From a bacterium (GTDB lineage: Bacteria > Patescibacteriota > Minisyncoccia > Moranbacterales > UBA2206): a stretch of 64,000 nt of DNA. Each line of letters opens with the position of its first letter. The first letter of the stretch is position 1. Where the stretch lies: NCBI GenBank assembly GCA_021788105.1, contig JAJYKZ010000002.1, forward strand, positions 3,320 through 67,319. The letters are read 5' to 3'. Below the pieces are notes generated by a model, which was given only the letters and a program-made list of their open reading frames with translations, searched no databases and was not told the origin of the DNA. Of the stretch, positions 4,535 through 26,749 are shown one piece after another. The position numbers were made by a program, and so were the translations under genes.

Positions 4535-4848
4535 AAGATTTACTTGATTTTATAAGTCTCGAAGACCAAAGACTCAAAACGAGCCACGAAATTTATCCTG
4601 ACCAAGAAAAAAGAATCCTGGCTCGCACGGTAAAACTTTCCGAAGAAGTGGGAGAGCTTTGCGATGAAGTTTTGTCGTTCAATGCAATGCAAAGAAAGGA
4701 TAAGCAAAAAGATTATGATGGGAAAAATCTTCCTAATGAAATTGCTGATGTGTTAATAGTTACCTTGCTTTTGGCTAAAGCGATGAATGTGGACATAGAA
4801 AAAGCTTTGGAAAATAAGATTGAAAAAATTAATAAAAGATATGAATAA
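4525..4848 (+). CDS. MazG-like nucleotide pyrophosphohydrolase
   Basis: EEVGELCDEV and EIADVLIVTLLLA motifs. It overlaps the preceding gene by 10 nt. Confidence 0.7.
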   Translation: MDLKDLLDFISLEDQRLKTSHEIYPDQEKRILARTVKLSEEVGELCDEVLSFNAMQRKDKQKDYDGKNLPNEIADVLIVTLLLAKAMNVDIEKALENKIEKINKRYE

Positions 4849-7073: not shown

Positions 7074-7093
7074 AAAAATTAACAAAAATAAAA

Positions 7094-7119
7094 AGCCTCG
7101 CCCGAAACGAGGTTTTTTG
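7094..7119 (+). terminator. Rho-independent terminator (cctcg-cccgaaa-cgagg + TTTTTT)
   Basis: Hairpin and T-run seen directly after the nuclease gene. Confidence 0.6.
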
Positions 7120-7163
7120 GTATAATAATAAAAAGAACAACAAATAGCCGCAAAAGCTTCTTA

Positions 7164-8378
7164 ATGAAAAAAAGGAAAGCAAAAATTTTTTCAATTATTC
7201 TGGCCAGTTTTTTTATTTTTGTGCTGGCATTTTTCGTCGCGGAAAAAATGAATCGGCCGGTCCATGCGGATAGCGAAAGTGATGGCGGCGAATCGGACGA
7301 CGGACATTTCCAGGTTATTAACACTAATCCTTCCAATGACAAGCCTCAAAAAACAGAAACCAAAACCATTACAACCAGGCTTAGTCCGACAGTCACTCAG
7401 ATAGTAACTACGACGACTCGCCATGATACCGATGGCGACGGTTTGTACGACGATGTGGATCCGCACCCGACGATCAATGAAAATTTCATAGTTAAAGATA
7501 ATAATCTGGACGGAATCGACGACAACTTTGAAACTCCGGATCAATTGAAAAACGTTGGCGTGCCAGGAACTGGTCAAAAAGTGGATTATAAAGGACAGGT
7601 CATTGTGGACAGTGATCTGGATGGACTGACTGATCAAGGAGAAATTCAAATTTATCATACCGACCCGGGCAATCCGGATTCGGACGGAGATGGATATTTG
7701 GACGGAGCGGAAATTTTAGCGGGAACCAATCCGCTGGATTCGAGCGATTATCCCGGCAATTCCAAACAGCAAGTAGATTCGGTCATTCAAAATTTGAGCA
7801 AAGGAACTCCCTGGGTTTGGTATGTTTCGCGCGCTTCCGGAATGATCGGTTTTATTTTTCTTTGGCTGACGGTTTTTTTGGGATTGGCGATTCGCAATCC
7901 TCTTCTCAAAAAAATTATCCAGCCCATATACAGTTTCGGCCTGCATGCGTTCGCGGGGGCGATGGCGATTTTTTGGAGCCTGGTGCACGGAACAAGCTTT
8001 CTTTTTCACGGAAGTTTCGCCCTGAGTTTTAAGGAAGTGGCCATTCCCTTTTATTCCCATACCGCCCTGGTTAATCCGACCTACATGAGCCTCGGTATTA
8101 TCGCTTTCTATCTTATGGTCATTATGGCGGTCACTTCTTTTCTTCGCTCGCATATGAATCACTGGCTTTGGAGGGTTTTGCATTTTTTGAATCCAGTCGC
8201 GTTTATTTTTGTGGTGGTACACGGATATTTCAACGGGACCGATATCAATAATAATTTTTATGTCGGCAGCGCCTTTTTGTTTTCTTCGTTTATTTTGGTG
8301 GTGATATATCTTATAAGTTTGGGGGCGGCGCTCGCTCAAAAGTTTGGCCGGGATCCGGTTTTAAATCAAGACAATTAA
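7164..8378 (+). CDS. Membrane protein: signal anchor + thrombospondin type-3-like Ca-binding repeats + C-terminal ferric-reductase-like (MsrQ/YedZ-like) heme-binding TM domain
   Basis: DTDGDGLYDDVD and DSDGDGYLDGAE Asp-rich repeats. The C-terminal 6-TM region has conserved His in GLHAFAG and VVVHGYF, typical of ferric reductase / MsrQ-like heme b domains. Confidence 0.5.
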   Translation: MKKRKAKIFSIILASFFIFVLAFFVAEKMNRPVHADSESDGGESDDGHFQVINTNPSNDKPQKTETKTITTRLSPTVTQIVTTTTRHDTDGDGLYDDVDPHPTINENFIVKDNNLDGIDDNFETPDQLKNVGVPGTGQKVDYKGQVIVDSDLDGLTDQGEIQIYHTDPGNPDSDGDGYLDGAEILAGTNPLDSSDYPGNSKQQVDSVIQNLSKGTPWVWYVSRASGMIGFIFLWLTVFLGLAIRNPLLKKIIQPIYSFGLHAFAGAMAIFWSLVHGTSFLFHGSFALSFKEVAIPFYSHTALVNPTYMSLGIIAFYLMVIMAVTSFLRSHMNHWLWRVLHFLNPVAFIFVVVHGYFNGTDINNNFYVGSAFLFSSFILVVIYLISLGAALAQKFGRDPVLNQDN

Positions 8379-8383
8379 AAAAT

Positions 8384-8743
8384 ATGGTTGCAAAAAATAA
8401 ATTGGAAAAATTCCTCATTGGTTTATCGGGACTTCTTGCTTTGTTTATTTTTGCGATGGGAATAAGAATTGAAGACGGCAATGGAAAATTGGCCGATATT
8501 CGGAATGATCTGGCTTCCGATTCCGACAGTCCGAATCCGGGTGCTGTTATTCAAAATGAAATCAGCGCGTCGCGGGACAGCATTCTAAACAAGGCGGCGC
8601 ATTCTCCGCTGACGGATGTGGCCCAGAATACGACCATTAAAACCGTAATTCCGGGAAAAATAATCACACAGGTCGTGCCTGTCACAACAAGCAGTTCGAA
8701 AACTTCTTCCAAATCTTCGAACAAAAAAACCAAGACATCATAA
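8384..8743 (+). CDS. Hypothetical membrane-anchored protein with Ser/Thr/Lys-rich tail
   Basis: N-terminal TM helix with a low-complexity C-terminus. Confidence 0.4.
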   Translation: MVAKNKLEKFLIGLSGLLALFIFAMGIRIEDGNGKLADIRNDLASDSDSPNPGAVIQNEISASRDSILNKAAHSPLTDVAQNTTIKTVIPGKIITQVVPVTTSSSKTSSKSSNKKTKTS

Positions 8744-8763
8744 CAGACCTAGGCGCATCAAAT

Positions 8764-9708
8764 ATGGATAAAAATAATCGACAAACCTTCAAGACGGAAT
8801 TCAGGGCAATGGGAACAACCGTATCGGCAGACATAGTTTTAGAAAAAACGAAAGAGGATTCGGCGCGGAAAGCGTTCCGGGAAATCCGGACAATTTTTGA
8901 GAAAAACGAAAAAATCTTCAGCCGGTTCCGGCCGGACAGCGAACTTTCAAAAATCAATCAGAATCTTGGAAAAGAAATCCGGGTTTCTCCGGAGATGCTG
9001 GAAGTTTTGGAATTATGCCTTAAGTTTAACAAAATTTCCGAAGGCTATTTTGATCCGCGGGTAATTGAAAATCTGGAGCGCATCGGTTATGACAAAGATT
9101 TTAAAAGCCATGATTTTAACGATCGGAGCGGAAAAGAAATTTTTTTGGAAAAAATTGAAGGCGGTCTGGAAGATGATTTGATCATAGACGCAAGAATGCG
9201 GGCAGTCACAATCAAAAAAAGAATCGATACGACAGGCATCGCCAAGGGCTATACGGTGGACGAAGCGGCAAACTATCTTTCAGAAAAAGGATTTCAGAAT
9301 TTTATCGTGGATGCCGGAGGCGATATGCTTGCGCAAGGCGTTAATGATGAGGGTGAAGACTGGCGGATCGGGATCGAGGGATTGGAAGATGATCGGCTGA
9401 TGTTGAAACTGAAGAATGAAGGCATTGCCACTTCGGGAATCAGTCGGAAGCGCTGGACGATCGGAGGCAGAAAATTTCATCATTTGGTCAATCCCAAAGA
9501 TCCGGAAAATTTTTCCTACGAAATAAAAACTGTGACGGTGATCGCGGAAAAAACCGTTGAGGCGGACGGGCGCGCCAAAGTTCTGGTGCTTATGGGAAAA
9601 GAAAAAGGATTGGAATTTGCTGACCGCCATGACTTGAAAGCCTTGTTCTTGGATTACAAGGGAAACATTTATCTTTCACGAAGAATGAAAGAAAATATTT
9701 TAAGTTAA
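8764..9708 (+). CDS. apbE: FAD:protein FMN transferase (ApbE family)
   Basis: FRAMGT ... FRPDSELS ... TTGIAKGYTVD ... VDAGGD are ApbE signatures. No signal peptide or lipobox is apparent. Confidence 0.75.
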   Translation: MDKNNRQTFKTEFRAMGTTVSADIVLEKTKEDSARKAFREIRTIFEKNEKIFSRFRPDSELSKINQNLGKEIRVSPEMLEVLELCLKFNKISEGYFDPRVIENLERIGYDKDFKSHDFNDRSGKEIFLEKIEGGLEDDLIIDARMRAVTIKKRIDTTGIAKGYTVDEAANYLSEKGFQNFIVDAGGDMLAQGVNDEGEDWRIGIEGLEDDRLMLKLKNEGIATSGISRKRWTIGGRKFHHLVNPKDPENFSYEIKTVTVIAEKTVEADGRAKVLVLMGKEKGLEFADRHDLKALFLDYKGNIYLSRRMKENILS

Positions 9709-9738: not shown

Positions 9739-10206
9739 ATGTCGACAGATACTCCTTTTAATTTTTTAAATTTCATCGGGTTGTTTTTGCTTCTGGCCGG
9801 TTTTGTTGTCGGTCTGGGATCCGTTACGGTTATTGAATTCCACGGCCTCTTGGGCCGACGGTCTTCATATTGGACCGAAGCAACTATCCGCGCGCACAAA
9901 GTGACGAAGCCGCTCATCTGGGCGGGCGTTTTTCTGGCGATCGTTGGCGGTCTGATTTTTTATCGCCACGCGAATTTTGTCGGCATTCCGCTTGCGCATG
10001 CCTTGATTGCAATTATTCTTATTGCCAACGGTTATTATCTTTCTTTCAAAGTCAGTCCATTTTTGCTGGAACGGGAAAAGGAGGGCTGCGCCGGAGAAAC
10101 TCTGCCGGGCTTGTTGCAGAAAAAAATAACCCTGAGCTTTATCGTGTCTGATTTGGGCTGGTGGGGCGCGCTGGCCTTGCTGGTCATTTATTTGTTGCGC
10201 CATTGA
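9739..10206 (+). CDS. Hypothetical 4-TM membrane protein
   Basis: Hydrophobicity pattern only. Confidence 0.4.
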   Translation: MSTDTPFNFLNFIGLFLLLAGFVVGLGSVTVIEFHGLLGRRSSYWTEATIRAHKVTKPLIWAGVFLAIVGGLIFYRHANFVGIPLAHALIAIILIANGYYLSFKVSPFLLEREKEGCAGETLPGLLQKKITLSFIVSDLGWWGALALLVIYLLRH

Positions 10207-10343
10207 GTTTTAAAAGATAATTCGGTTGTAGTAATAACAAGAGATATTTTAGAAATTAAATTAAAGAAATAAAGAAAGCGGGGTTTTGTAATAAAAATTA
10301 CGTTGTTAATAAATTAAAAATCAATCAAGAAGGAGGTGATTTT

Positions 10344-10721
10344 ATGGCTGATAGAACTCAATCTACAACTGCCAGCATTATAAACATCATATTGGGCGTA
10401 TGGCTGATTATTTCTCCGCTGGTTATAATTTTTCCCAATTCGGGACAAGCCACCAATGCGGTGATTGTGGGTATAATCGTTGCGGTTTTGTCCTTAATAC
10501 GGGCATTCACCCCGGAAACAACCGCGGGACTTAATTGGATTAATATTGTTTTGGGTGCGTGGCTTATAATTTCCCCTTTCTTGTTCGGAAGCAACATCAG
10601 TGTTCTTTGGAGCGACATCGTGTCGGGCATTCTCGTAATAGTTTTCAGCGGCTGGAGCGGATCGGCGGCGATGGTGCATGCCGGACATAAAGAGGACAAG
10701 GATAAAGAAGATAGAAAATAA
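10344..10721 (+). CDS. SPW-repeat membrane protein
   Basis: Two copies of LG(V/A)WLIISP(L/F) are present. A strong RBS (aaggaggtg) lies 8 nt upstream. Confidence 0.7.
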   Translation: MADRTQSTTASIINIILGVWLIISPLVIIFPNSGQATNAVIVGIIVAVLSLIRAFTPETTAGLNWINIVLGAWLIISPFLFGSNISVLWSDIVSGILVIVFSGWSGSAAMVHAGHKEDKDKEDRK

Positions 10722-10740
10722 TGAATTTAGAGAAACAAAA

Positions 10741-10770
10741 AGCCGGGCAGGAGGAACCCGGCCTTTTGTT
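10741..10770 (+). terminator. Rho-independent terminator (gccggg-caggaggaa-cccggc + TTTTGTT)
   Basis: GC-rich hairpin plus T-run seen directly. Confidence 0.65.
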
Positions 10771-10854
10771 GAAAAAAAACTTAAATATTTTTATTCCGCA
10801 AAAATTTTCAAAGTGATATAATAGAAATAATTAATAATTAAAATAATAAAAATT

Positions 10855-11253
10855 ATGAAGGGTTATGTGGCAAATATTGAAAAAGCGGCCGAAGAAAATG
10901 GCAATTTTCGCAAAGTTCTCTACACGGGAAAAAACAGCCAGCTGGTTCTGATGAGTCTTTTGCCAGAAGAGGAAATCGGCGAAGAGGTGCATGCGCTTGA
11001 CCAATTCATCCGCATCGAAAAAGGGATGGGCAAAGCAAGTCTGAACGGCGTAGAGCATGAGATTGCGGATGGCTTTGCCGTTGTCATTCCGGCCGGAACC
11101 AGGCACAACATCATTAATACTTCCGGCGACGAACCAATGAAACTTTATACGATTTATTCTCCGCCGGAACATCGCGATGGCGTGACGCACGCCACAAAAA
11201 ATGACGCGATGACGGACAAAACCGACGAGTTTGACGGCAAGACGACTGAATAA
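10855..11253 (+). CDS. Cupin-domain protein
   Basis: EEVHALDQFIRIEKG ... VVIPAGTRHNIINTSGDEP is a cupin motif pattern. Confidence 0.6.
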   Translation: MKGYVANIEKAAEENGNFRKVLYTGKNSQLVLMSLLPEEEIGEEVHALDQFIRIEKGMGKASLNGVEHEIADGFAVVIPAGTRHNIINTSGDEPMKLYTIYSPPEHRDGVTHATKNDAMTDKTDEFDGKTTE

Positions 11254-14496: not shown

Positions 14497-15912
14497 ATGA
14501 AAAGATCCGAATTATTTTTTAGCGCAATTCAGGTTCCTGTTGATTTTGTTATGATAGTCTTGGCGGCTGTGACCGCTTTTTCGGTTAGAAATGTGCCGGA
14601 AATTCTTGCTTTGAAACCTATTTTGTACAAATTTCCCTTCAGCATTTACATCAAAGTCGTTTTGGCAGTCGTTCCGCTGTTTCTGATAATCTATGCGCTT
14701 GAAGGACTTTATGACATCCGGGTTACCAGAAAATTTTGGAAAGAATCTCTCAAAGTTTTCAATGCCACTTCGATCGGACTGGTGGTCATAATTGTCGCCA
14801 TCTTTTTGCAGCGCGAGTGGTTCTCTTCGCGTTTTATTATTTTAAGCGCCTGGGGCTTGGCAGTCATTTATGTTGTTGTGGCAAGATATTTTCTTCAATT
14901 GGTGCAAAAAGGATTGTTGCGCGGACGGGGAATCGGCGTGCATCGCGTATTGCTTATCGGAAGAAATGGCAAGATGGATACGGTTTCTAAATTGATCAGG
15001 CATAATAAAAATTTGGGATACCGGGTCGTTGATCAGATTGAAACAGCTCATCTCAAAGTGATTAAAGGCATAAAGCAGGAAATGGGAATCGATGAGATGA
15101 TTTTATGCGAGCCGTCCGTTACGGATGACGAGCAGGAAAAACTGGTCGATTATTGCGCCATCAATAACATTGTCTATAAATATATTCCGACAACTCTTCA
15201 AACTTCGCGTTTCGAAGTCGGAGTTTTAAACGGAGAACCCCTGATTGAAGTGAAAAGCACTCCTCTAGACGGTTGGGGCAGAATTTTGAAAAGAATTTTC
15301 GATGTTTTGGTTTCGATTGCCGGGATTATCATTACTTCGCCGGTCATGCTGGGCGCTGCTTTGGCCATTTGGCTGGAAGACGACGGCCCGATCATCTATA
15401 AAAACGAACGGGTGGGAAACGACGGAAAAAAATTTTTCGTCTATAAATTCCGCTATATGAAATGGCAGTATTGCGTAACGAAAGAAAATCCCAATTTGGG
15501 AGAGGCGCTTAAATTTGAAAAAGAACTGATTGAAAAGCAGAGCGTTCGAAGGGGTCCGCTATATAAAATTAAAAACGATCCGCGCAAAACGCTTGTCGGA
15601 AGTTTTATTGAGAAATATTCCATCGACGAACTGCCGCAATTTTTCAACGTGCTTTTCGGATCGATGAGCTTGGTCGGTCCCCGGCCGCACCAGAAAAGGG
15701 AAGTGGAAAAATATATGGATTATCACCGGCGGCTTCTGACGATTAAGCCGGGCGTGACGGGAATGGCGCAAGTTTCCGGGCGGTCTGAATTGGATTTCGA
15801 AGACGAATACAAGCTGGATCTTTATTATATCGAAAATTGGTCTCTTTGGCTGGATATTCAGATTTGTTTGAAAACAATCGGCGTTTTGTTTCGCAAAAGG
15901 CAAAACTCGTAA
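14497..15912 (+). CDS. Undecaprenyl-phosphate sugar phosphotransferase (WbaP/exopolysaccharide priming glycosyltransferase family)
   Basis: Multiple N-terminal TM helices. The C-terminal sugar-transferase domain has KRIFDVL, YKFRYM, IDELPQFFNVL, MSLVGPRP and GVTGMAQV. Confidence 0.85.
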   Translation: MKRSELFFSAIQVPVDFVMIVLAAVTAFSVRNVPEILALKPILYKFPFSIYIKVVLAVVPLFLIIYALEGLYDIRVTRKFWKESLKVFNATSIGLVVIIVAIFLQREWFSSRFIILSAWGLAVIYVVVARYFLQLVQKGLLRGRGIGVHRVLLIGRNGKMDTVSKLIRHNKNLGYRVVDQIETAHLKVIKGIKQEMGIDEMILCEPSVTDDEQEKLVDYCAINNIVYKYIPTTLQTSRFEVGVLNGEPLIEVKSTPLDGWGRILKRIFDVLVSIAGIIITSPVMLGAALAIWLEDDGPIIYKNERVGNDGKKFFVYKFRYMKWQYCVTKENPNLGEALKFEKELIEKQSVRRGPLYKIKNDPRKTLVGSFIEKYSIDELPQFFNVLFGSMSLVGPRPHQKREVEKYMDYHRRLLTIKPGVTGMAQVSGRSELDFEDEYKLDLYYIENWSLWLDIQICLKTIGVLFRKRQNS

Positions 15913-15948: not shown

Positions 15949-16965
15949 ATGAATACACAAGAAATTATCAAAAAAATTGAGCAAAAAAGAGGTTCCAAGG
16001 TCATAACCTATGTAACCAGTGACCGCCAAGGTCCGGTTAATGCTCGGGTAGCAATGGATATTATTCCGATTATTAGCTCACAGTTGCGAAAAATAGGAAA
16101 ACAGGAAAAAATCGACCTGGTTTTGTATAGCGCCGGTGGCGACACCATGGTGCCTTGGCGCTTGGTTTCAATGATTCGTGAATATTGTGATAAGTTTTCA
16201 GTGATCATTCCTTACAAAGCTCACAGTGCCGCAACCATGATTTCACTCGGTGCTGATGAAATTGTAATGAGTGATATGTCCGAGCTTTCACCAATTGATC
16301 CGTCGACCTCAAACTTTTTCAATCCAGTCGATCCGCAAAATCCGCAGAATAGGATTCCAATTTCCGTGGAAGAAGTAATGAGCTATTTTGATCTGGCAAA
16401 AAATAAGTTTGGCATTAAAAGTGACGAAGACTTGACCAAGATTTTTAATAAGTTTGTGGAAAGCAACCCATCGATCCATCCTTTGGCGTTGGGCAATATT
16501 AACCGCACGCACAACCTGATCAAGATTTTGGCCAAAAGATTGCTCAAGAGCCACAAGGAACCGATGAAGGAGGATGAAGTGGAAAAAGTGATTGAATTTC
16601 TAACGGAAAAATTATATTCGCATCAATACTACATCGGACGCAAAGAAGCCAAAGAAGATTTGGGAATCAAGTCTGTGGTTCTTGCCGACAAGGAGCTTTC
16701 TGATCTGATGACGGAAATTTATGAGGAATACGCTAAAGAAATGAATATGCGGACAATCTGGAATCCGGAAATGGAATTCGCCAAAGGCCAGAACCAAGAA
16801 TACAAGATTGCCTTCGTGGAAAACGCTGAAGGCGGCAGTCATTTCGGAATCAATATGGAATTTAAAAAAGTCCAGCAAAACATCCCGCAACAAACGCAAG
16901 TAGGAATAATTAATATTCCACAGGAACAGATTGTGTGGAGGATTATTGGTCAAGGATGGAAATAA
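15949..16965 (+). CDS. SDH-family ClpP/crotonase-fold serine protease (PF01972-like)
   Basis: VITYVTSDRQG, LVLYSAGGD and YKAHSAATMISLGADEIVMSDMSELSPIDP match, from memory, the serine dehydrogenase proteinase family. It is the first gene of a tightly spaced 7-gene operon. Confidence 0.6.
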   Translation: MNTQEIIKKIEQKRGSKVITYVTSDRQGPVNARVAMDIIPIISSQLRKIGKQEKIDLVLYSAGGDTMVPWRLVSMIREYCDKFSVIIPYKAHSAATMISLGADEIVMSDMSELSPIDPSTSNFFNPVDPQNPQNRIPISVEEVMSYFDLAKNKFGIKSDEDLTKIFNKFVESNPSIHPLALGNINRTHNLIKILAKRLLKSHKEPMKEDEVEKVIEFLTEKLYSHQYYIGRKEAKEDLGIKSVVLADKELSDLMTEIYEEYAKEMNMRTIWNPEMEFAKGQNQEYKIAFVENAEGGSHFGINMEFKKVQQNIPQQTQVGIINIPQEQIVWRIIGQGWK

Positions 16966-16969
16966 AAAT

Positions 16970-17659
16970 ATGGAATTTTTAGATACAAATACAAATTACT
17001 CAAATACAACTTATTACGCCGTTGATTCATCGGTTTATTTCTCTTTTCAAAGGGTAGATAAATTGGATTTGTTATTTTCTTTTTGTAAAGGAAATGCGGT
17101 CATAACTCCGAAAATCGAGGGAGAAATTTTTGGTCAAAGTATTTTTTCATATTCTTATGTCGGATTGTTTGAGCCATGGCTGCGAACTCCAAAAAAGAAC
17201 GATTCAACTTTGGTATGGGATAATTCGTATTTTAACAATATTACCTCAACCATATCTACTGATAAATATAGAAGTTCCTTTTATTTGGCTAATGTTGATT
17301 ATCATTCAATTACTTCAACGATAAATACTTCGTCTTGGCAATATGATTTTTCAAAACTTAAATCAGAGGCAGATAGAGAAATCGCCAGGTGGACAGTATT
17401 AAATTCCGGAAGTGTTTTATTGACCAATGATCAGCCAATCAGGACATTTTTCAAAAATTCTAAAATTAATGTTGTGGGAGCCATCGGCATTCTGATTGAG
17501 TTGGTTAAAAAGGGATTGCTAACGTTGCAAATAGCCGAGAGTATTTACAATAAATGGAGTGAAATTGATCCGGGATGTTGTAAATGGAAAAAAATAAACA
17601 AAGTTAGGCATCTTGTTGAATTTAATGAAATTTATCTAAGTTTTAATTTTCAAAAATAA
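16970..17659 (+). CDS. PIN-like domain protein (VapC-like) with N/S/T-rich insert
   Basis: EFLDTNT at the N-terminus, AVITPKIEGEIFG (PIN-like Glu region) and DREIARWTVLNSGSVLLTNDQPIRTF (PIN C-terminal TxD motif region). The start is 4 nt after the upstream stop. Confidence 0.45.
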   Translation: MEFLDTNTNYSNTTYYAVDSSVYFSFQRVDKLDLLFSFCKGNAVITPKIEGEIFGQSIFSYSYVGLFEPWLRTPKKNDSTLVWDNSYFNNITSTISTDKYRSSFYLANVDYHSITSTINTSSWQYDFSKLKSEADREIARWTVLNSGSVLLTNDQPIRTFFKNSKINVVGAIGILIELVKKGLLTLQIAESIYNKWSEIDPGCCKWKKINKVRHLVEFNEIYLSFNFQK

Positions 17660-17663
17660 ATTT

Positions 17664-18302
17664 ATGACAAAAGAAATTATACAAGTGCAGCTGGCGTGGT
17701 TTTTCGAAAGTGAATACAATGAAAGTTTCGAAAAAATATCATTTAAGCTGAAAGAGAAGATTGGCAATAGTGAGCAAACTCAATATATTCCAGTTCCAAA
17801 TGGCGCTCCCAGTGAATTGCCTAGACTCTTTCTGAAGTACAAAGATTTTAATTTAACTTTTTCAAAAACTCGTGCAGATATATATATATTAAAAAATCAC
17901 AAAGAAATATCAACTATTGAAAATATTAGAAAAATAACAGAGTTGATTATTGATGACTTGCATATAAAAGTTGTTCGAATAGGCTATGTGAAAAGTTTTT
18001 TTGTAGAAGAAACGCTCGAGTATGTAAAAAAAATGTTTAAAGAAGAAAAAATTGCAGGCTTAGATATAAAAGAAATTGGTTTTAATCTTAATGTTCCTAA
18101 GGAAATTGCAGGTATGAAATGTAATAATATAGAAAATTTAGCAATGGGAAACGCTACAAAAAATGGAGAAGTTAAAAACGGATTGATTATAAATCGTGAT
18201 GTTAATAACATTATCGGAGAAAAAAGTGATTTTGATAAAACTGATAAAGTAATTACCGCGATAATTGCATTTGATACAGAAGCGGATAATTTTCTAGTGT
18301 AA
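17664..18302 (+). CDS. Hypothetical protein (no recognisable domain)
   Basis: ORF in operon. 4-nt gaps both sides. Confidence 0.5.
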   Translation: MTKEIIQVQLAWFFESEYNESFEKISFKLKEKIGNSEQTQYIPVPNGAPSELPRLFLKYKDFNLTFSKTRADIYILKNHKEISTIENIRKITELIIDDLHIKVVRIGYVKSFFVEETLEYVKKMFKEEKIAGLDIKEIGFNLNVPKEIAGMKCNNIENLAMGNATKNGEVKNGLIINRDVNNIIGEKSDFDKTDKVITAIIAFDTEADNFLV

Positions 18303-18306
18303 TAAT

Positions 18307-18807
18307 ATGTCTGATGTCTTTATTTATAAAAGAACAGAATCCAGTACGGGAGCTTACTGGGAAAAAGAAAAGTATCAGGCCGAAGGGGCTGATCCTTTTA
18401 CGTACATAAGTCGTATATCTCAAATGGCGAAGGATATAGAAGAGGATTTTAAGAAGAAGTCTGAAAAAATTAAAGATGAAATCAAAACAAGCGAGGATAG
18501 GCTTAATAAAAAAATTGATGATAGTAAATTGAAAATCATTGAAACCCTTGGAATTTTTGTTGCATTATTTACTTTTGTTTCAATAGATTTTCAGGTTTTT
18601 CGAGCATATAAAAATCCATGGTCCATTGGTGGATTAATCCTTATTCTTTTAGGTTCTTTGACGATGTTTTTGATTCTATTGGATTATCTAATTATAAATA
18701 GTTATGCAAATAATAAAATAAAAAAGAAAATTCAATCAGAACTTTGGTTAGTAAATATTGTCTTTCTTGTCATTGGTTTTTTTCTGTTTATAATATCAAA
18801 AAAATAA
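18307..18807 (+). CDS. Hypothetical coiled-coil protein with three C-terminal TM helices
   Basis: Charged, K/E-rich helical N-half. Hydrophobic segments are IFVALFTFVSIDFQVF, LILILLGSLTMFLILLDYLII and LVNIVFLVIGFFLFII. Confidence 0.5.
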   Translation: MSDVFIYKRTESSTGAYWEKEKYQAEGADPFTYISRISQMAKDIEEDFKKKSEKIKDEIKTSEDRLNKKIDDSKLKIIETLGIFVALFTFVSIDFQVFRAYKNPWSIGGLILILLGSLTMFLILLDYLIINSYANNKIKKKIQSELWLVNIVFLVIGFFLFIISKK

Positions 18808-18814
18808 ATTTTTT

Positions 18815-20794
18815 ATGAAAAATTCACTTATATATGAACTTCCTAAAATTGTCGATGAAGGCAAGAGGGAAGTTGAAAAAATATTGGAACGACTTTCAAG
18901 TCAGAATAAATTGGGATTGCAGACCAATGAGTTGGTTTTGCCAGCAAAAGATTCAGCCGGACTTTTTTCCGGTCAAATGCCGAATGCGGATGAAAAGGAA
19001 TGGATGAATCGCTTGGTGTATGGTGACAATCTTTTGGTGATGCAGGCGCTTTTGGCTGGCGACCCGGAGAGTGGACTGCCTTCAATGCGCGGGAAAATTG
19101 ATTTGATCTACATTGATCCGCCGTTTGATTCCAAAGCGGACTATCGCACGAAAGTTACATTGCCCGGCGTTAATTTGGAACAAAAGCCGACCGTCATTGA
19201 ACAATTTGCCTATGCGGACACTTGGAAAGACGGGACGGTTTCATATCTCAAAATGCTTTATCCGCGTTTGGCTTTGATGAAGGAACTTTTATCGGACAAG
19301 GGGTCAATTTATGTTCATATTGATTGGCATGTCGGACATTATGTGAAAATTTTGTTGGATGAAATATTCGGAAAGAATAATTTTAGGAACGAAATAACTT
19401 GGAAAAGTGGCGTTGTTAAAGGGGCTAAAACCACTTCTGATAAATATGGCAGAGTAACTGACTCAATATTTTTTTATACTAAGTCCGATGATTATTTTTT
19501 CAAAACACCATTTAAGCCAATCGACTTAAACAGTCCGAACAATAAATTTATTCATAGAGATAAGGATGGCCGTTTGTATAGCCGTGATAATCCTCTTGGT
19601 GATTATAGTCAAGAATCAATTGATAAATTTGAAAAAGAAGGAAGAATATATCATACAAAGAATGGAAAAAAGCAGCTAATTCGATATTACGACGAAGTTA
19701 AGGGTATTGCTGTTGGCAATCTATGGGATGATATTAACTTTATAAACCAAGTCGCAGATGAAAGACTTGATTATAATACACAGAAGCCCGAAAAATTATT
19801 AGAAAGAATAATAGAAGCATCTTCTCAAGAAAATTCTGTAATTGCTGATTTTTTTGCTGGCTCGGGGACGACTGGAGCGGTGGCGGAAAAATTAAATCGC
19901 AAGTGGGTCATGTCCGATTTGGGTAAGCCGGCGAGCTTGGTGATGCGGAAAAGATTAATTGATCAGAATGCCAAACCTTTTTTCTATCAATCCATCGGCG
20001 ACTATCAAAAAGAAACTTTCGCTTCGGGAAAACTTTTTCGCCGCGTCGGCGATTTGGCCAATGTGGTTTTGCAGCTTTTCGGCGCGATTCCGTTTACCGA
20101 TGACCAAAATCCCAACAGAAATATCGGCTACATAAAAGAAAGCCGGACTTTGGTGCTGGTGGATTCGCCGAGCAAGCTCACCGGCCTTTCCACGCTCAAG
20201 CGCGCGCAGGAGCTCAAAATTTCTTTCATGGGCGGCTGGAATAAGGTTGTGGTATTGGGCTGGAATTTCACTTTTGACATCACCGAAGCCATTCAGAGTT
20301 TGAGCGACAAAGATTTGGAAGTGCTGGTCATTCCGCCGGATCTTTTGGACAAACTTAAGACCAAAGCCAGCTATAAGGACTTGATTGAAAAAAGGAAAAT
20401 CCGCTTTTCGTCTTTGCAATACCTGTCGTTGAAGCCGGTCGCCAAAGAAAATATTTCTGAAAGCGAAGAGAAATTGGAGATTGAGCTGGACAACTATGTT
20501 TTGCTTTCGCCTGACAATATTCCTCTGGACGATAAAGACAAAGAAAAATTGCGCGACATCATCGCCAAAGATCCGCTCTCGCTCATTGAATATTGGAGTA
20601 TCGATCCGGATTATGATGGTGTGACTTTTCGTTCTCGCTGGCAGGATTATCGCGGTAATACCGAAAATGATAGCGATTCTTTGCATGTCATTCGCAAAGC
20701 GCAACTTACCGTTCCGAAAGTTCAAAATCGAAAAGTATGCATCAAAGCAGTGGATGTTTTTGGATTTGAAAGCATCGTTTTGGAAAATTTATAA
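18815..20794 (+). CDS. mod: Type III restriction-modification Mod subunit (beta-class N6-adenine DNA methyltransferase)
   Basis: NRLVYGDNLLVMQALL ... IDLIYIDPPFDS (motif IV) precedes FFAGSGTTG (motif I). This is the beta-class order, in a ~660-aa protein typical of type III Mod. Confidence 0.85.
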   Translation: MKNSLIYELPKIVDEGKREVEKILERLSSQNKLGLQTNELVLPAKDSAGLFSGQMPNADEKEWMNRLVYGDNLLVMQALLAGDPESGLPSMRGKIDLIYIDPPFDSKADYRTKVTLPGVNLEQKPTVIEQFAYADTWKDGTVSYLKMLYPRLALMKELLSDKGSIYVHIDWHVGHYVKILLDEIFGKNNFRNEITWKSGVVKGAKTTSDKYGRVTDSIFFYTKSDDYFFKTPFKPIDLNSPNNKFIHRDKDGRLYSRDNPLGDYSQESIDKFEKEGRIYHTKNGKKQLIRYYDEVKGIAVGNLWDDINFINQVADERLDYNTQKPEKLLERIIEASSQENSVIADFFAGSGTTGAVAEKLNRKWVMSDLGKPASLVMRKRLIDQNAKPFFYQSIGDYQKETFASGKLFRRVGDLANVVLQLFGAIPFTDDQNPNRNIGYIKESRTLVLVDSPSKLTGLSTLKRAQELKISFMGGWNKVVVLGWNFTFDITEAIQSLSDKDLEVLVIPPDLLDKLKTKASYKDLIEKRKIRFSSLQYLSLKPVAKENISESEEKLEIELDNYVLLSPDNIPLDDKDKEKLRDIIAKDPLSLIEYWSIDPDYDGVTFRSRWQDYRGNTENDSDSLHVIRKAQLTVPKVQNRKVCIKAVDVFGFESIVLENL

Positions 20795-20804
20795 AAAGAT
20801 AAAA

Positions 20805-22499
20805 ATGACAAGAGAAGAGTTAGAAAAATTATTGGCAGCCGACAAGGAAACCGAACATCTTGAATTCAAAGAGATGTCCGGGCAGATTTCTATTTTGGGA
20901 AAAGATGAGAGCAAGAAGGGCAATACACAAAAGAAATCACTGTTTGGATATTGTGTTGCAATTGGAAATGAAGGTGGCGGTAAGATAATTTTTGGAGTCA
21001 AAGATAAGATAAACCAAAAAACCGGAAAGCGCGATATTGTTGGAACAGATGCTTTGCCGAATATGCAAAAAGCCAAAGAGCGAATTTATGAGGTTTTAGG
21101 CAGGAGGATAGATATTGAAAATATGCAAACAGAAGATGGATTGGTTCAGATTGTAACGGTTCCGACGCATCCTATTGGAGAACCTTTTGATTTTTATGGA
21201 TTGTATCTGATGAGAAATGGGGAGAAATTGGAAAAAATGGACACTGGAACCTTGGCAAAAATTATCAATGAAGGCAGTCCGGACTTCTCCTCTTTAGAAA
21301 ATGAGAAAGCTGCATGGGATGATTTGGACAGTAAGGCTGTCGAAATCTTGAAGCAAAAATGGATTGAAAAATCCAAAAACTCGGATTTGGTGGATTGCGA
21401 TCATAGAGAAATACTTGAAAAATTAAGACTTGTCACAGGAAAGGGAATAACTAATGCTTGTCTTTTGTTGGTTGGGAAAGAGGATTCGCTTGCGAGACTG
21501 ATTCCAAATTCAGAAATTTTTTTAGAGTGGCGATTGAATGGTAAAAAAGCAGAATATGATCTGAGAAAAATACTTAGAAAACCGTATTTAATTGCTGATG
21601 AAGAAGTTTGGAATTTTGTAGACAGCAGGAATACGCGAGTACCATTCAAGCAAGGATTTTTCGAATTGGATATTTGGTCTTATGATAAGCAAACTATACG
21701 CGAGGCTGTTTTAAATGCATTTGCTCATCGAGAATATTGCAATAGAACTGAGCCGATTTATGTGCGTGTTTCTCCTAATAAAGTTATTGTTAAAAGTGCT
21801 GGCGGATTCGTTTCCGGCGTTACCGTGGAGAATATTTTTGATGTTGAGGGGAAATGGAGGAATTATTTGCTTATGGATGTGCTTGGAAAAATTGGTTTGG
21901 TTGAGCGAGCCGGATTTGGCCTGGATAGAATATATAAAACTACAATTGCGCAGGGCAAGGGTGCGCCTAATTTTGATGGAACTACTAACGAATATGTCAT
22001 ATTGAACATACCGACTAAAGTTCGGGATATAAATTTCGTTTATTTTTTGCAAAAGATAGAAAAGGAAAAACAGTTGGGTATTGATGCTACAAAAGACTTT
22101 GTTGAATTAGAGAAAATAAGAGAAGGTGAAAAAAATTACGACAAGAAAAGACTTAAATTATTTATGGATAATGGTATTGTTGAAAAAATTGGACAAGGCA
22201 AGGGAACCAAATATGTGCTAGCAAAAAAATTCTATGATTTTATTGATAATCAAAGCGAATATACTAGAAAAAAATGGTTAAGTAAGGAACAACAAAAAGA
22301 GGTTTTGATGAATTTTTTTAGACAACATAAAAAAGGACGGATGACGGACTTTTCAAAATTATTTGAGAATAAGTTGAATAATAATCAAATTTTTACTTTA
22401 CTGAGCGAGCTTAGAAGTGATGATTTTGTATATTTTGATGGCAAACAAAGATCTAGTAAGGGCTTTTGGAGACAGAAAAGAGAAGCTGTTAATAAGTAG
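20805..22499 (+). CDS. Schlafen/AlbA_2 DNA-binding domain + HATPase_c_4 (divergent ATPase) protein, RecG-like 'putative transcriptional regulator' family
   Basis: N-terminal ETEHLEFKE (the AlbA_2 ExxLEFK signature) and C-terminal REAVLNAFAHREY ... GLVERAGFGLDRIYK (HATPase_c_4 signature). It is inserted between mod and res. Confidence 0.7.
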   Translation: MTREELEKLLAADKETEHLEFKEMSGQISILGKDESKKGNTQKKSLFGYCVAIGNEGGGKIIFGVKDKINQKTGKRDIVGTDALPNMQKAKERIYEVLGRRIDIENMQTEDGLVQIVTVPTHPIGEPFDFYGLYLMRNGEKLEKMDTGTLAKIINEGSPDFSSLENEKAAWDDLDSKAVEILKQKWIEKSKNSDLVDCDHREILEKLRLVTGKGITNACLLLVGKEDSLARLIPNSEIFLEWRLNGKKAEYDLRKILRKPYLIADEEVWNFVDSRNTRVPFKQGFFELDIWSYDKQTIREAVLNAFAHREYCNRTEPIYVRVSPNKVIVKSAGGFVSGVTVENIFDVEGKWRNYLLMDVLGKIGLVERAGFGLDRIYKTTIAQGKGAPNFDGTTNEYVILNIPTKVRDINFVYFLQKIEKEKQLGIDATKDFVELEKIREGEKNYDKKRLKLFMDNGIVEKIGQGKGTKYVLAKKFYDFIDNQSEYTRKKWLSKEQQKEVLMNFFRQHKKGRMTDFSKLFENKLNNNQIFTLLSELRSDDFVYFDGKQRSSKGFWRQKREAVNK

Positions 22500-22618
22500 A
22501 TAGGGAGTAGTTTTGGGTAGTTTTATTATATATTTTGGCTTATTAGCACAATTTTAAGGTATTTTATATAAGTAGACAATAAGTAGAACAAGAGTAGATA
22601 ATTCATTATTCTAAAAAT

Positions 22619-25537
22619 ATGCCGTCACCGATTAGCATTGGAACGAGATCAGTTCCGCTTAAATTAGCAAATAGCATTACGCAAAAAGTGAATGATTCTT
22701 GGGCGAGCGGAGAAATGCTGTCCAAGGTGTCTTTGGTGACGCAAGACTTGCTCAAATTTTGGTTTCGCGAGCCGCATACGGAAACGAGATATGTCAATTT
22801 CCATGAAGGGCAAAGGCAGGCGATTTCGAACGCGATTTATTTGCATGAAATTGTCGGAGTGAAAAACGTCAAAGAAATTTATGACAACATTGAGTTTGAG
22901 CTTTTGGCGGATATTGATTCGGCGGAACTGCGCAAGGCAAAATATGAAATTCCCAAATATGCCATTAAGATGGCCACCGGAACCGGCAAGACTTGGGTGA
23001 TGCACGCGCTTTTAATCTGGCAATATCTTAACGCTAAATTTGAAACGGAAAAATCCGGCCGGTTCACTAAAAATTTTTTACTGGTCGCGCCGGGCATTAT
23101 TGTGTATGAACGGCTTTTAGATGCGTATCTCGGCAAGGAAAATGAAAATCAAGAGAGACAATTTGAGCAATCTGATTTTTTCAAATTCAAGGATCTTTTT
23201 ATTCCTCAGCAATATCGCGAGGATGTTTTTGGTTTTATTCAAAATAGTGTAGCAAGAAAACAAGAAATTGGGACCAAAACGACTGGCGATGGTCTGATTG
23301 CGATTGCTAATTGGCACTTGTTTATAGACAAAGAAGATCAGGAAGAAAGCCTTGATTCACCAATGGATGACATAAGTTCGATTGTAAGAGATATCCTTCC
23401 AATTCGTCCGGGAATTTCCGGTGGCAACGCACTAGACTCGCTGGACGCCAATTATTTGAGCGGTCGGGAAGTTAGTTTTTTGGCAGAGCTGTCGGATTTG
23501 ATGGTGATTAATGATGAAGCGCACCACATCCATGAGAACAAAATTTACGGTGAAATTAAGGAGGTTGAATGGCAAAGAAGTCTGAACAGAATTGCCAAAG
23601 GGAAGAATGAAAAATTTATCCAGATAGACTTTTCTGCGACTCCATACGATGTTACCGGCAGCGGACAAAAAAGAGTAAAACATTATTTCCCGCATGTAAT
23701 TGTTGATTTTGATTTAAAGAATGCGATCAGAAAAGGGCTGGTCAAAACGATTGCAATAGACAAGAGAAAGGAATTGACTGACATGGCTTTGGACTATAAC
23801 GCAATTCGCGAAGGTAATAAGGTTGTTGGTTTGTCTGACGGCCAAAAGTTAATGATTCGCGCCGGTTTGAACAAATTGAAAATATTGGAAAACAATTTCG
23901 TTGATTTTGCGAAAGACAAAAACGGAATTTCGGACAAATATCCAAAAATGCTTATCATGTGTGAGGACAAAAGTGTCTCGCCTTTGGTTGAAACTTTTGT
24001 GCGGGAGGAAGGTTTTTCTGAAGGAGATGTGCTGAGAGTCGATACTGGCAAGAAAGGCGAGATTCCTGAAAGTGAGTGGCTGACATTGAAACAAAAACTT
24101 TTTAATATAGACAAACACCAGAGTCCGAGAGTGATAGTTTCAGTTCTTATGCTTCGGGAAGGTTTTGATGTGAGCAATATTTGCGTTATTGTGCCATTGC
24201 GTTCTACGCAAGCGCCTATCCTACTTGAACAGACAATCGGTCGCGGATTACGTTTGATGTGGCGCGAGCCGGAATTTTTAGACATAAAGCAGGACAATAT
24301 AAAAAGGCTCTTGGTTGAGAAAAAGGAGCCAAACAATTACCTTGATTTGCTGACGATTATTGAACATCCTTCGTTTGTTCAGTTTTATGATGATTTATTG
24401 GCGGAGGGATTATTGGGAGAGCTAGAGCATGATCCAGCTGACAAAGAAGGCGTGCTGGGCGATATCATAAAAGTGGGGTTGAAAAGCAATTACAAAGAAT
24501 ATGATTTGTATTGGCCTATAATCATTAGGGAGTCAGAAGAAGAATTAGCAGTCAGCGAAGTTGGGGTTGAAAAATTGGAACCATTTGTCCATTTTCCCTT
24601 GGAAGATCTGCAGAAATTTTTTCAAAAAGAAGGGGAAAGCTTTGTTTCTGAAGAGATGACCGTTAAGACCAGATTTGGAGAATATTCAGTTGATGCTAAT
24701 TTGTTTAAGTCGCAGAGCTATAATGAATATTTAGAAAAAATTCTCAATGTGGTTGTGAATCGCATGGCTCGCGTGAGCGCTCGAAAAACAAAAACTTTCC
24801 CAGTTATGCAGATCAATAATCTCGAGGTGGCCAAGGTTATTGATAAATACATCAAAACAAAATTATTTGGAAAACCATTCGATCCATTTTTTGAAAATAA
24901 CTGGAAAGTTTTGCTAATGAAAAATGGAATTGTGACAGAGCATATCGTGAAAGAAATCAGTAAGATAATCATTGAGATGCAAAATTCTGTCGAAGTGAGT
25001 GAGGCGAAAATCGAGAAGCGATATTTTTCAGAAGTGCCGGAGTTGCGAATGCGCGAAAATTATTCTTTGGAAATCGCCAAAACAATTTACGAAAGGTTAC
25101 CATATCCTTCAAACAAGGGCGGATTCGAGAAGGCTTTTTTGGAATATGCAGATGCGGATTCCGGAGTGGAGTCAATTATGAAAGTCAACGAATATTTCCA
25201 TAATTTTGCTAACGTGACGTATATCAGGACTGACGGATTTTTATCGTTGTACTATCCGGACTTCATCGTGAAAACAGCAGATAAAGTTTATTTTATAGAA
25301 ACAAAATCAGAAAAAGATTTAAATGATCCGAATGTAAAGCAGAAACAATTAGCAACTTTGGATTTTCTTAGTCGTATAAACAAATTAGGAACAGAAGATA
25401 GGATGGACAGGACTTGGGAATATATTTTGATGGGCGAAAATAATTTCTATAGCTTACAAGGCAATAATGCCTCAATTGATGAAATTTGTCAGTTGACAAA
25501 AATGACGCAAGCTAAGGCAGAAGGAAAATTGTTGTAA
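22619..25537 (+). CDS. res: Type III restriction enzyme Res subunit (SF2 helicase + C-terminal PD-(D/E)xK nuclease)
   Basis: Walker A MATGTGKTW and the DEAH box VINDEAHHI. The C-terminal YPDFIVKTADKVYFIETKSEKD matches the PD...ExK endonuclease motif. Length 972 aa. Confidence 0.85.
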   Translation: MPSPISIGTRSVPLKLANSITQKVNDSWASGEMLSKVSLVTQDLLKFWFREPHTETRYVNFHEGQRQAISNAIYLHEIVGVKNVKEIYDNIEFELLADIDSAELRKAKYEIPKYAIKMATGTGKTWVMHALLIWQYLNAKFETEKSGRFTKNFLLVAPGIIVYERLLDAYLGKENENQERQFEQSDFFKFKDLFIPQQYREDVFGFIQNSVARKQEIGTKTTGDGLIAIANWHLFIDKEDQEESLDSPMDDISSIVRDILPIRPGISGGNALDSLDANYLSGREVSFLAELSDLMVINDEAHHIHENKIYGEIKEVEWQRSLNRIAKGKNEKFIQIDFSATPYDVTGSGQKRVKHYFPHVIVDFDLKNAIRKGLVKTIAIDKRKELTDMALDYNAIREGNKVVGLSDGQKLMIRAGLNKLKILENNFVDFAKDKNGISDKYPKMLIMCEDKSVSPLVETFVREEGFSEGDVLRVDTGKKGEIPESEWLTLKQKLFNIDKHQSPRVIVSVLMLREGFDVSNICVIVPLRSTQAPILLEQTIGRGLRLMWREPEFLDIKQDNIKRLLVEKKEPNNYLDLLTIIEHPSFVQFYDDLLAEGLLGELEHDPADKEGVLGDIIKVGLKSNYKEYDLYWPIIIRESEEELAVSEVGVEKLEPFVHFPLEDLQKFFQKEGESFVSEEMTVKTRFGEYSVDANLFKSQSYNEYLEKILNVVVNRMARVSARKTKTFPVMQINNLEVAKVIDKYIKTKLFGKPFDPFFENNWKVLLMKNGIVTEHIVKEISKIIIEMQNSVEVSEAKIEKRYFSEVPELRMRENYSLEIAKTIYERLPYPSNKGGFEKAFLEYADADSGVESIMKVNEYFHNFANVTYIRTDGFLSLYYPDFIVKTADKVYFIETKSEKDLNDPNVKQKQLATLDFLSRINKLGTEDRMDRTWEYILMGENNFYSLQGNNASIDEICQLTKMTQAKAEGKLL

Positions 25538-25651: not shown

Positions 25652-26749
25652 ATGAAAATCGCGCTGGTACACGACTATTTGGTCCAATACGGGGGAGCGG
25701 AAAGAGTTCTGGAGTGTTTTACGGAGCTTTTTCCTGGCGCGCCGATTTACACTCTGGTTTACAATAAAAAATTGATGCACGGAGTTTTTGAAAATAAAAA
25801 TATCAAAACCTCTTTCATTCAGAAAATTCCGTTCGCCAAAAATTATCATCGTATCTTCCCTCAATTGATGCCGATGGGCATCGAACAGTTTGATTTTTCC
25901 GGCTACGACATCGTTCTTTCCGATTCTTCGAGTTATGCCAAGGGAATAATTACCGGACCGGAAACGCTGCATATCTGCTATATGCATACGCCGATGCGTT
26001 ACGCCTGGGACGATTGTCAGAAATACACCCATGATTTCAGCTTTCCCGGATTTATCAAAAAAACTATTCCGCTGGCGATGAACTACATCCGCATTTGGGA
26101 CCGGGTGAGCGCAGAAAGGCCCGATCGCCTGATTGCCAATTCCAATTTCGTGTCTAAAAGAATCAAAAAATATTATAAAAAAGACAGCGTTGTCATTCAT
26201 CCGCCGGTGAACATAAATAATTTTTATATCGACGAAAGTGAGGAGGATTATTTTTTGATCGTCGCGCGTCTTCTGGCGTACAAGCGCGTGGACATTGCAA
26301 TCGAGGCTTTTAACAAATTAGGATTGAAATTGAAAATTATCGGACGCGGTCCGGAAATGAAGCGGCTCAAAAAAATGGCCGGACAAAATATTGAATTTCT
26401 GGGAAGAGTTCCGGATCATGAATTGGCGCAATATTATGCCAAATGCCGGGCCTTTGTTTTTCCGCAAGAAGAAGATTTCGGGATAGTGGCGATCGAGGCT
26501 ATGGCTTCCGGAAAACCGCTTATCGCTTTCCGGGGCGGAGACATTCCGGAGCATGTGGAAAACGGCAAGACGGGAATATTTTTCGATAAGCAAAATCCGG
26601 AGAATATCATTGAAGCGGTTGAAAAATTCGGCAGTTTTGATTTCGATCCCAAATACATACGGGAACAGACAAGGAAATTTGACAGAGAGATTTTTAAGGA
26701 TAAAATAAAGGAATATATCGAAAATTCCTTTCGGGAATTTAAAATGTAG
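25652..26749 (+). CDS. Glycosyltransferase family 4 (GT-B fold)
   Basis: MKIALVHDYLVQYGGAERV N-terminus and a GT4 EX7E-like region (FPQEEDFGIVAIEAMASGKPLIA). Confidence 0.8.
   Translation: MKIALVHDYLVQYGGAERVLECFTELFPGAPIYTLVYNKKLMHGVFENKNIKTSFIQKIPFAKNYHRIFPQLMPMGIEQFDFSGYDIVLSDSSSYAKGIITGPETLHICYMHTPMRYAWDDCQKYTHDFSFPGFIKKTIPLAMNYIRIWDRVSAERPDRLIANSNFVSKRIKKYYKKDSVVIHPPVNINNFYIDESEEDYFLIVARLLAYKRVDIAIEAFNKLGLKLKIIGRGPEMKRLKKMAGQNIEFLGRVPDHELAQYYAKCRAFVFPQEEDFGIVAIEAMASGKPLIAFRGGDIPEHVENGKTGIFFDKQNPENIIEAVEKFGSFDFDPKYIREQTRKFDREIFKDKIKEYIENSFREFKM

Follow-up and report, generated by a model that had tools for sequence, protein, structure and literature searches.

Bacterial gasdermins with their caspase-like proteases, the CalpL-CalpT-CalpS system and Craspase follow a common logic, in which a dedicated protease licenses an adjacent effector by cleavage. 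Other systems keep a second line of defence within the restriction operon itself: PrrC, at the EcoprrI locus, and PARIS are accessory genes of this kind, with a nuclease effector beside the restriction-modification (R-M) genes, and in the alleviation of type IA and IB restriction a Clp-type protease, ClpXP, is tied to the restriction enzyme (PMC12707154). Here, we describe a locus that recalls both arrangements, in a 64,000-nucleotide (nt) stretch of DNA, hereafter the window, from a patescibacterium of the Moranbacterales (UBA2206; GenBank assembly GCA_021788105.1, contig JAJYKZ010000002.1, positions 3,320 to 67,319 of the forward strand). At this locus, a gene for an SDH-type ClpP-fold serine protease (g1) is followed by three small genes (g2, g3 and g4) and then by the methyltransferase (Mod) and restriction (Res) genes of a type III R-M system. 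Comparison of related loci supports a recurrent frame, comprising a conserved protease, a slot of zero to four fast-swapping small genes and, in about a third of loci, type III Mod-Res. By its sequence features, and with good comparative support, this frame is a candidate variant of the protease-plus-effector defence architecture.

The resemblance to each described system is partial. Neither PrrC nor PARIS shows homology to the present genes in PADLOC, and the locus differs from both in its constant ClpP-fold protease, its membrane and PIN-like partners and its type III restriction genes. ClpXP is a housekeeping, ATP-dependent protease encoded at an unlinked site, whereas g1 belongs to the SDH family, has no adjacent ATPase gene and is encoded within the operon, beside type III genes. 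With the protease-activated systems the likeness lies in a protease gene next to that of a candidate membrane effector, cleavage here being conjectural; g1 has a predicted ClpP/crotonase fold rather than that of a caspase, Lon or CHAT protease, g4 is a three-helix protein and not a gasdermin, and the locus has neither a cyclic-nucleotide nor a CRISPR sensor. The features of the locus are as follows:

15949-16965, + strand: g1, SDH-type ClpP-fold serine protease, 338 amino acids (aa); conserved anchor of the locus
16970-17659, + strand: g2, PIN-like protein, 229 aa from ATG; the listed open reading frame (ORF) begins at TTG 16931; optional gene at position +1 of the locus
17664-18302, + strand: g3, 212 aa, soluble alpha/beta protein whose family has no annotation; paired with g4 as a two-gene unit
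18307-18807, + strand: g4, small membrane protein with three C-terminal transmembrane helices, 166 aa; candidate membrane effector or anchor
18767-18794, + strand: promoter-like site, TTGTCA-16-TATAAT, 11/12 matches, inside the 3' end of g4
18815-20794, + strand: Mod, type III R-M methyltransferase, 659 aa; PF01555, PADLOC MTase_III
20805-22499 (from ATG), + strand: g6, Schlafen/AlbA_2 and HATPase_c_4 protein, 564 aa, between Mod and Res
22619-25537, + strand: Res, type III R-M restriction subunit, 972 aa; PF04851, PADLOC REase_III
14497-15912: Bac_transf sugar transferase, upstream flank of the seven-gene block
25652-26749: ORF of 365 aa, downstream flank of the seven-gene block

The seven genes share one strand from 15949 to 25537, with successive gaps of 4, 4, 4, 7, 10 and 119 nt in the ORF table. 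A preliminary description, made from the letters of the window, had recognised this tight packing and placed the ORFs correctly, although its range of 15949-22499 leaves out Res (to 25537).

To set the locus in context, relatives of g1 were gathered with their surroundings, 80 from species-representative genomes and 80 from metagenomes (in which 551 relatives were found), giving 142 unique protease loci whose ORFs were called and clustered in this analysis. The main counts refer to the 89 unique loci with at least 3.5 kb downstream of the protease, and the counts of slot contents to 92, which include three distant plasmid homologs. In 31 of the 89 loci a type III Mod gene follows the protease on the same strand within five genes, against three of 73 in which one lies upstream (Fisher p=6e-7), and Res follows within three genes after Mod in 17 of these Mod-linked loci. 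In 30 of the 31, all genes between protease and Mod are on one strand, and the gaps along this path are short (median 6 nt; 87 of 105 no longer than 30 nt) and often replaced by overlaps. So many independent contigs show the arrangement that chance would not account for it. Other restriction systems can also follow the frame, namely EcoRII-C, Dcm and Vsr in two loci (L007, L015) and DpnI in another (L098). Some locus clusters first suspected to be R-M genes proved on sequence inspection to be DnaK/DnaJ and UvrA/UvrB.

The contents of the slot vary from locus to locus. In 17 loci it holds a member of the g3 family, with g4 or some other membrane protein next in almost every case; in 15 it holds DUF6941 (PF22091 match, 2e-22) and then a membrane protein with one helix; in 12 it holds c6, a family of 200-250 aa with N-terminal transmembrane helices; and in 10 it holds the PIN-like g2 or its relative c11. 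Taken together, g3+g4, DUF6941 with its one-helix partner, and c6 account for 43 of 92 loci. Further slot genes include RhuM-Fic, confirmed by Pfam, as well as a candidate HEPN/MNT-like pair and a DinD-like gene, named from sequence inspection. The preliminary description had presented g1-g4 as a four-gene cassette, and it is this unit that fails to recur: among about 90 usable protease loci, none but the window, with its duplicate assembly, has g2, g3 and g4 together, g2 elsewhere normally accompanies DUF6941 and the one-helix protein (before type III R-M in L001-L006, and before EcoRII-C/Dcm/Vsr in L007), and g3+g4 usually occurs without g2. The nearest relatives of the window illustrate the same exchange. 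In L023 the protease is 86%, Mod 78% and Res 91% identical to their counterparts here, with g3 at 27%, a different membrane partner and neither g2 nor g6; L012 shares the protease (91%) and Mod (74%) and has wholly different slot genes; and L014 has the protease (88%) and, upstream of it, the sugar transferase (71%) in common with the window, and differs in the genes downstream. Over all linked protease-Mod pairs, proteases are 67-91% identical (median 73%) and Mods 21-78% (median 35%), with no correlation between the two (Spearman 0.07).

The constant member of the frame, g1, had been assigned to the SDH proteases from its sequence alone, and the assignment is borne out by PF01972 (SDH_protease), matched at 64.8 bits (8e-18) against a gathering cutoff of 31.3, over model positions 37-162 only. 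The NCBIfam equivalog NF047768 is matched at 71.3 bits (8e-20), below its cutoff of 250 bits, and on these scores g1 is a divergent SDH subfamily rather than the curated equivalog; in PHROGs there is a full-length match to phrog_11747 (4e-44). The protein comprises an N-terminal Clp-fold domain (approximately residues 3-123) and a helical C-terminal half. Homologs as distant as 26% identity all retain S93 (in HSAAT), D117 (in PIDP) and R186, and the Gly-Gly pair at 63-64, corresponding to the oxyanion hole, is kept in five of six homologs over that range, the exception being L094. With nucleophile serine and oxyanion Gly-Gly conserved, g1 is classified as an SDH/ClpP-fold serine protease for which proteolysis is predicted. 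It is probably cytoplasmic, because no hydrophobic or transmembrane segment and no signal peptide were found in it; nor does any gene neighbouring g1 match SPFH, so that the pairing of NfeD/STOPP with stomatin is not seen here. Of the 2340 homologs found at E<=1e-10, the top 120 each share 71% identity or more; these come mostly from Moranbacteria and other Patescibacteria.

The N-terminal domain of g1 also matches ClpP-related phage head-maturation proteases (NF045542, 8e-9; phrog_1684, 3e-9), yet no capsid, portal or scaffold genes lie near g1. No close relatives of the protease were found in IMG/VR viral contigs, and matches in the phage collection searched were only 23-37% identical; a phage-borne or prophage origin was rejected because these viral contig scans were negative. 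A lambdoid phage-plasmid of E. coli (NZ_CP081794; L092, 5971-6966) does encode a solitary 331-aa homolog, 39.5% identical, in opposite orientation between the Q antiterminator and holin genes, a classic position for accessory genes. More distant plasmid homologs, from Chlorohelix, Rhizobium and Agrobacterium, lie in unrelated and uninformative contexts.

The evidence that g2 is PIN-like is of a different kind. The preliminary description relied on motifs read as DTN and TNDQ, of which the latter (N153-D154) is indeed invariant, but DTN is not: its D5 is not conserved, the conserved N-terminal aspartate being D19 in 'AVDSS', and no PIN match was obtained at profile level. Pfam returned nothing for g2 even at E<=10, NCBIfam and PHROGs nothing significant, and PADLOC v2 only PDC-S70 at E 0.002; the relative P0008 aligns with DUF3368 at E 0.22 over 19 residues, and the stored matches for these proteins are faint. 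Against the PDB, a profile of the g2 family found the PIN protein 1o4w at E 0.55, aligned at the 'SEaD...LLTND' segment. Foldseek gave no significant match for an AlphaFold2 (AF2) model of g2 with a predicted local distance difference test (pLDDT) score of 60, a model limited by the shallow alignment from which it was built, and its top-ranked matches were largely PIN-like folds. Residues D19, E50/E52, D135 and D154 are invariant in five g2 homologs and putatively equivalent to PIN catalytic positions; D135 and N153-D154 are invariant also in the related family c11 (hhalign 95%). Three independent weak lines, from profile, predicted structure and conserved residues, agree in suggesting a PIN-like fold. 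Direct homologs are very rare, with five among 5.8 billion proteins. The predicted fold may be closest to PIN domains, and with PIN nucleases of the VapC/COG2405 type g2 would share an acidic quartet and a DUF3368-like C-terminal 'LLTND...G..G.L'. It differs from these in having no Pfam-level match, in a Ser/Thr/Asn/Tyr-rich low-complexity insert of about 75 residues (47-123) that interrupts the fold and is modelled as disordered, and in the protease gene upstream in place of a VapB-type antitoxin; the 4-nt gap between g1 and g2 holds no small antitoxin ORF, and the VapBC layout is thus not reproduced. In some loci other than the window, a MazE/AbrB-like gene (PF04014; 56-58 aa) without a MazF partner lies directly upstream of the protease (L001-L006, at 8665-8835 and equivalents, L015 and L019), and in L007 (7150-7326) one lies downstream of the R-M genes. 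It may encode a regulator of the operon, absent from the window.

The remaining two slot genes of the window form a pair. As originally noted, g3 contains no recognisable domain, matching nothing in four hidden Markov model libraries (Pfam, NCBIfam, PHROGs and PADLOC). It has three direct homologs among 5.8 billion proteins, and a profile built from g3 and two close homologs recovers 378 cluster representatives at E<=1e-3, all of approximately 200-240 aa, in ten sampled members of which no Pfam family was found. The AF2 model of g3 is good (pLDDT 80; predicted template modelling score 0.78) and its fold matches nothing closely; profile searches of the PDB with the g3 and DUF6941 families found no match. 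Kinship between g3 and DUF6941 was considered and rejected, the profile-profile comparison (hhalign) not being significant and only a short '(F/A)P..xPR' motif being shared. This proline-rich motif, the sole segment aligned by hhalign, sits at a similar position in both (g3 residues 46-55, 'NAPxEIPRL'; DUF6941 approximately 36-45, 'NFPAxHPR') and might represent a docking or cleavage site, or chance.

In g4, the three transmembrane helices previously proposed correspond to hydrophobic segments at 75-93, 107-125 and 146-164, preceded by a charged, helical and coiled-coil-like N-terminal part. Within the family alignment E79, G82 and F84 are conserved at the start of the first helix, and the N-termini are hypervariable. 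Matches in Pfam, PADLOC and PHROGs are weak and typical of coiled-coil or membrane noise (PADLOC E 0.004 or weaker); for one further member of the family, PADLOC returned only coiled-coil-type matches at E 1e-4 or weaker. A g4 gene accompanies g3 in 15 of the 17 g3-bearing protease loci. A reverse co-occurrence test seeded on g3, which drew on only five or six loci, found the protease directly upstream in L010, L098 (where DpnI follows) and L100. The pair, whose soluble member precedes a small membrane protein of several helices and which can stand alone, recalls in outline RexAB, a two-gene abortive-infection system made up of a soluble sensor and a multi-pass membrane protein, with which it shares no sequence similarity (no PADLOC match). 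A C-terminal motif with a pair of cysteines ('CIKNFGFTYKCFE' or 'C..KKYWQYEQCFK') is common to some three-helix proteins of the g4 family and the family of one-helix partners (L087 9700-10503, L041 12189-12899, L001 11066-11512, L007 4310-4819 and L098 8626-9114), which suggests a common extramembrane module shuffled among the membrane partners.

Downstream of the slot, Mod matches PF01555 (N6_N4_Mtase, 2e-42) and PADLOC MTase_III (5e-73), and Res matches PF04851 (ResIII, 2e-13), PADLOC REase_III (4e-22) and, under its cutoff, NF046055 (BPTD_3080 family, 7e-58); g6 matches PF04326 (SLFN_AlbA_2, 2e-7) and PF13749 (HATPase_c_4, 8e-12). These profiles agree with the first naming of the three genes, including the 119 nt before Res, and by them Mod and Res are a type III R-M pair on the same strand with g6 inserted between. 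The orthologous operon of L023 has no g6, and Mod and Res are 17 nt apart there. At this junction other loci have different genes, among them an antisense ORF of some 130 aa and a gene for a protein of 216-246 aa. The space between Mod and Res thus appears to act as an additional slot for insertions, in the manner of prrC within type I loci.

The block had also been described as free of terminators, and this stands apart from one weak 5-bp stem at 20324, within Mod, the sole terminator-like site on its + strand in a consensus scan whose counts of promoter- and terminator-like sites were no higher than those of a shuffled control. Transcription of the cassette as one unit with the restriction genes, which that description assumed, is likely and not certain, because the promoter-like site with 11/12 matches precedes Mod; this lies 21 nt ahead of the Mod start codon and follows a sigma-70-like consensus that may not be that of this bacterial group. 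The composition of the region is distinctive, with a guanine-plus-cytosine (GC) fraction of 0.30-0.31 over 17001-19000, the region of g2-g4, against 0.41-0.44 on either side. A second low-GC patch in the window, at 53001-55000 (0.32-0.34), encodes a 369-aa protein with a weak Lig_C match and a GT4 glycosyltransferase, the latter also matching a 'GT4-conflict' family at 4e-9. Elsewhere in the window, six small same-strand hydrolase genes at 1001-5497 (HD, Metallophos_2, 2H/LigT-like (DUF1045), Peptidase_S51, Ham1/ITPase and HAD) look like a nucleotide-salvage or house-cleaning cluster; in L098 the protease likewise has Peptidase_S51 and NUDIX genes close by.

The Patescibacteria, or Candidate Phyla Radiation (CPR), comprise a large share of bacterial diversity, mostly without CRISPR and with few recognised defence systems, and it is in their genomes that the frame is mostly found. 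Protease relatives at 62-70% identity occur also in metagenome-assembled genomes of Omnitrophota, Smithella, Nitrospirae and Bacteroidota. This patchy spread over phyla, the low GC of g2-g4 and the phage-plasmid copy in L092 are signs that the frame has spread horizontally. The setting is rich in defence genes, as anticipated by the preliminary description: type III and type II R-M, DpnI, AbiEii, HEPN/MNT-like, RhuM-Fic, RadC and MazE-like genes are neighbours in related loci, in addition to the polar linkage to type III R-M. That description had recognised no named defence system in g1-g4, and PADLOC v2 likewise gave no convincing match; the alternative partners c11, DUF6941, c6, c4/c14 and c105 had none in PADLOC-DB v2.0.0, and the literature searched on SDH/ClpP-like or S49 proteases and on DUF6941 in connection with defence or R-M yielded no account of such a system. 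A functional screen published in 2025 reported LdgA and DdgA (the 'Dallas' system), Patescibacteria-specific defence proteins without recognisable homology (PMC12366544), and overlap of g1-g4 with these, known here by description only, is possible.

Our favoured explanation, held tentatively and with less than even confidence, is that the locus is a protease-centred module of the abortive-infection type coupled to restriction, the window being one filling of the recurrent frame. It is favoured because a conserved hub with variable, effector-like partners resembles known modular defence systems; by analogy, the membrane, PIN-like, HEPN/MNT-like and Fic proteins of the slot resemble the effector sets of conflict systems. 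We infer the defence function, the proteolytic activation and the direction of signalling from this pattern. The preliminary description had likewise raised the conjecture that the protease licenses g2 or g4 by proteolysis. Under such a scheme the frame would act as a second line, backing up or guarding restriction, with the protease as its constant hub. On a phage cue, the protease would cleave or turn over a partner, perhaps g3 or the variable cytoplasmic N-terminal part of g4, and so release the slot effectors, g4 to damage the membrane and g2 to cleave RNA or DNA. More doubtful is the broader proposition that SDH/ClpP-fold proteases are the hub of an undescribed modular anti-phage family, widespread in CPR/Patescibacteria, that licenses interchangeable effectors and is coupled to type III restriction, whether in guarding against anti-restriction or in tuning.

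Several observations weigh against an abortive-infection module. Approximately 65% of protease loci have no adjacent Mod, about half lack any recurrent partner family, and in L148 the slot is empty and the protease abuts Mod-Res directly. The promoter-like site before Mod permits independent transcription of the restriction genes. No sensor or trigger was identified for the frame, and in PADLOC-DB v2.0.0 g1 and g3 had no match and g2 and g4 only weak ones. By a crude transmembrane predictor, which scores 37% of all genes as positive, membrane proteins are no commoner after the protease than in the background, and any claim to the contrary was dropped. The very high conservation of g1 is unusual for a defence gene. 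Furthermore, g3 with a g4-like three-helix protein stands alone, with no protease, in the 5.3-Mb genome of L097, and probably also on the short contig of L096, where the fragment upstream of g3 is not the protease; because of these occurrences g3+g4 does not need the protease, and forms an autonomous pair, found joined to it in many cases but not in all. Finally, in seven of the 142 loci (L034, L036, L037, L039, L040, L134 and L180) the protease, at approximately 10001-11026 or 7001-8023 in each, and its partners lie beside a heat-shock operon, with grpE just upstream in all seven and dnaK seen downstream in four. The insertion site may be particular to a lineage, or the position may point to a connection with proteostasis.

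Much of the same evidence can be read in terms of restriction alone. On this alternative, g1 would be an accessory of the R-M system and a dedicated counterpart to ClpXP in restriction alleviation, degrading Res or stalled Mod-Res complexes so that restriction is delayed when a new host is entered, or so that self-restriction is relieved; g2-g4 would be unrelated cargo. The polar protease-Mod-Res linkage in 31 of 89 loci is what such a role predicts, and the link does not need slot genes, because the protease directly precedes Mod-Res in L148; it also directly precedes c11-Mod in L065 and L086, and the window and L023 have kept protease, Mod and Res together while exchanging the genes in the middle. 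Moreover, degradation of HsdR by ClpXP is established for the alleviation and establishment of type IA and IB systems (PMC12707154). We nonetheless judge proteolytic control of restriction unlikely: Mod is missing from the five-gene range in around two thirds of protease loci, the frame also precedes the unrelated EcoRII-C/Dcm and DpnI systems, identity between proteases shows no correlation with that between Mods, this reading gives no account of the recurrent membrane-protein partners, and no proteolytic alleviation of type III systems was found in the literature consulted for restriction alleviation. If instead the genes share no function at all, the protease gene or its 3' flank may simply mark a site of recombination or integration, at which modules that act alone accumulate, both small defence or toxin-antitoxin modules (g3+g4, PIN-like, HEPN/MNT-like and Fic) and R-M systems, and beside which the protease plays a separate role. 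The combinatorial contents of the slot, the unique combination in the window, the autonomy of g3+g4 in L097, the agreement of window and L014 upstream and in the protease but not downstream, and the assorted genes, g6 among them, inserted between Mod and Res are all in keeping with a cargo hotspot of this kind. Upstream genes, however, vary as much as those downstream, and the protease therefore moves with its slot and is not the marker of a fixed chromosomal site; very short gaps (median 6 nt) on one strand look like one transcription unit and not like independent insertions; and the ORF tables showed neither an integrase nor repeats or attachment-like sites, though no search aimed at repeats was made. 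We regard this possibility, too, as rather doubtful.

The ClpP-fold relatives SppA and NfeD act on membrane proteins, and g1 might similarly serve a housekeeping role in membrane-protein quality control or proteostasis, with small membrane adaptors or substrates and no connection to phage. The extreme conservation of g1, the seven loci beside grpE/dnaK and the recurrent small membrane-protein neighbours would all fit. Such a role is nevertheless improbable for a gene distributed patchily over phyla at 62-70% identity and at varying genomic positions, with defence genes as neighbours, polar linkage to R-M, hypervariable partners and low-GC companions in g2-g4, and whose product has no transmembrane segment, signal peptide or SPFH/stomatin partner.

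The locus lends itself to study as an example of type III restriction to which an accessory module is physically joined. Were the protease to control the restriction enzyme, a dedicated protease encoded in the operon would be seen in that role for the first time. Should the abortive-infection reading hold, the ClpP-fold protease would become a new enzymatic hub among defence architectures, in a frame carried by well over a hundred contigs, and functions would be assigned to two orphan families, that of g3 and DUF6941.

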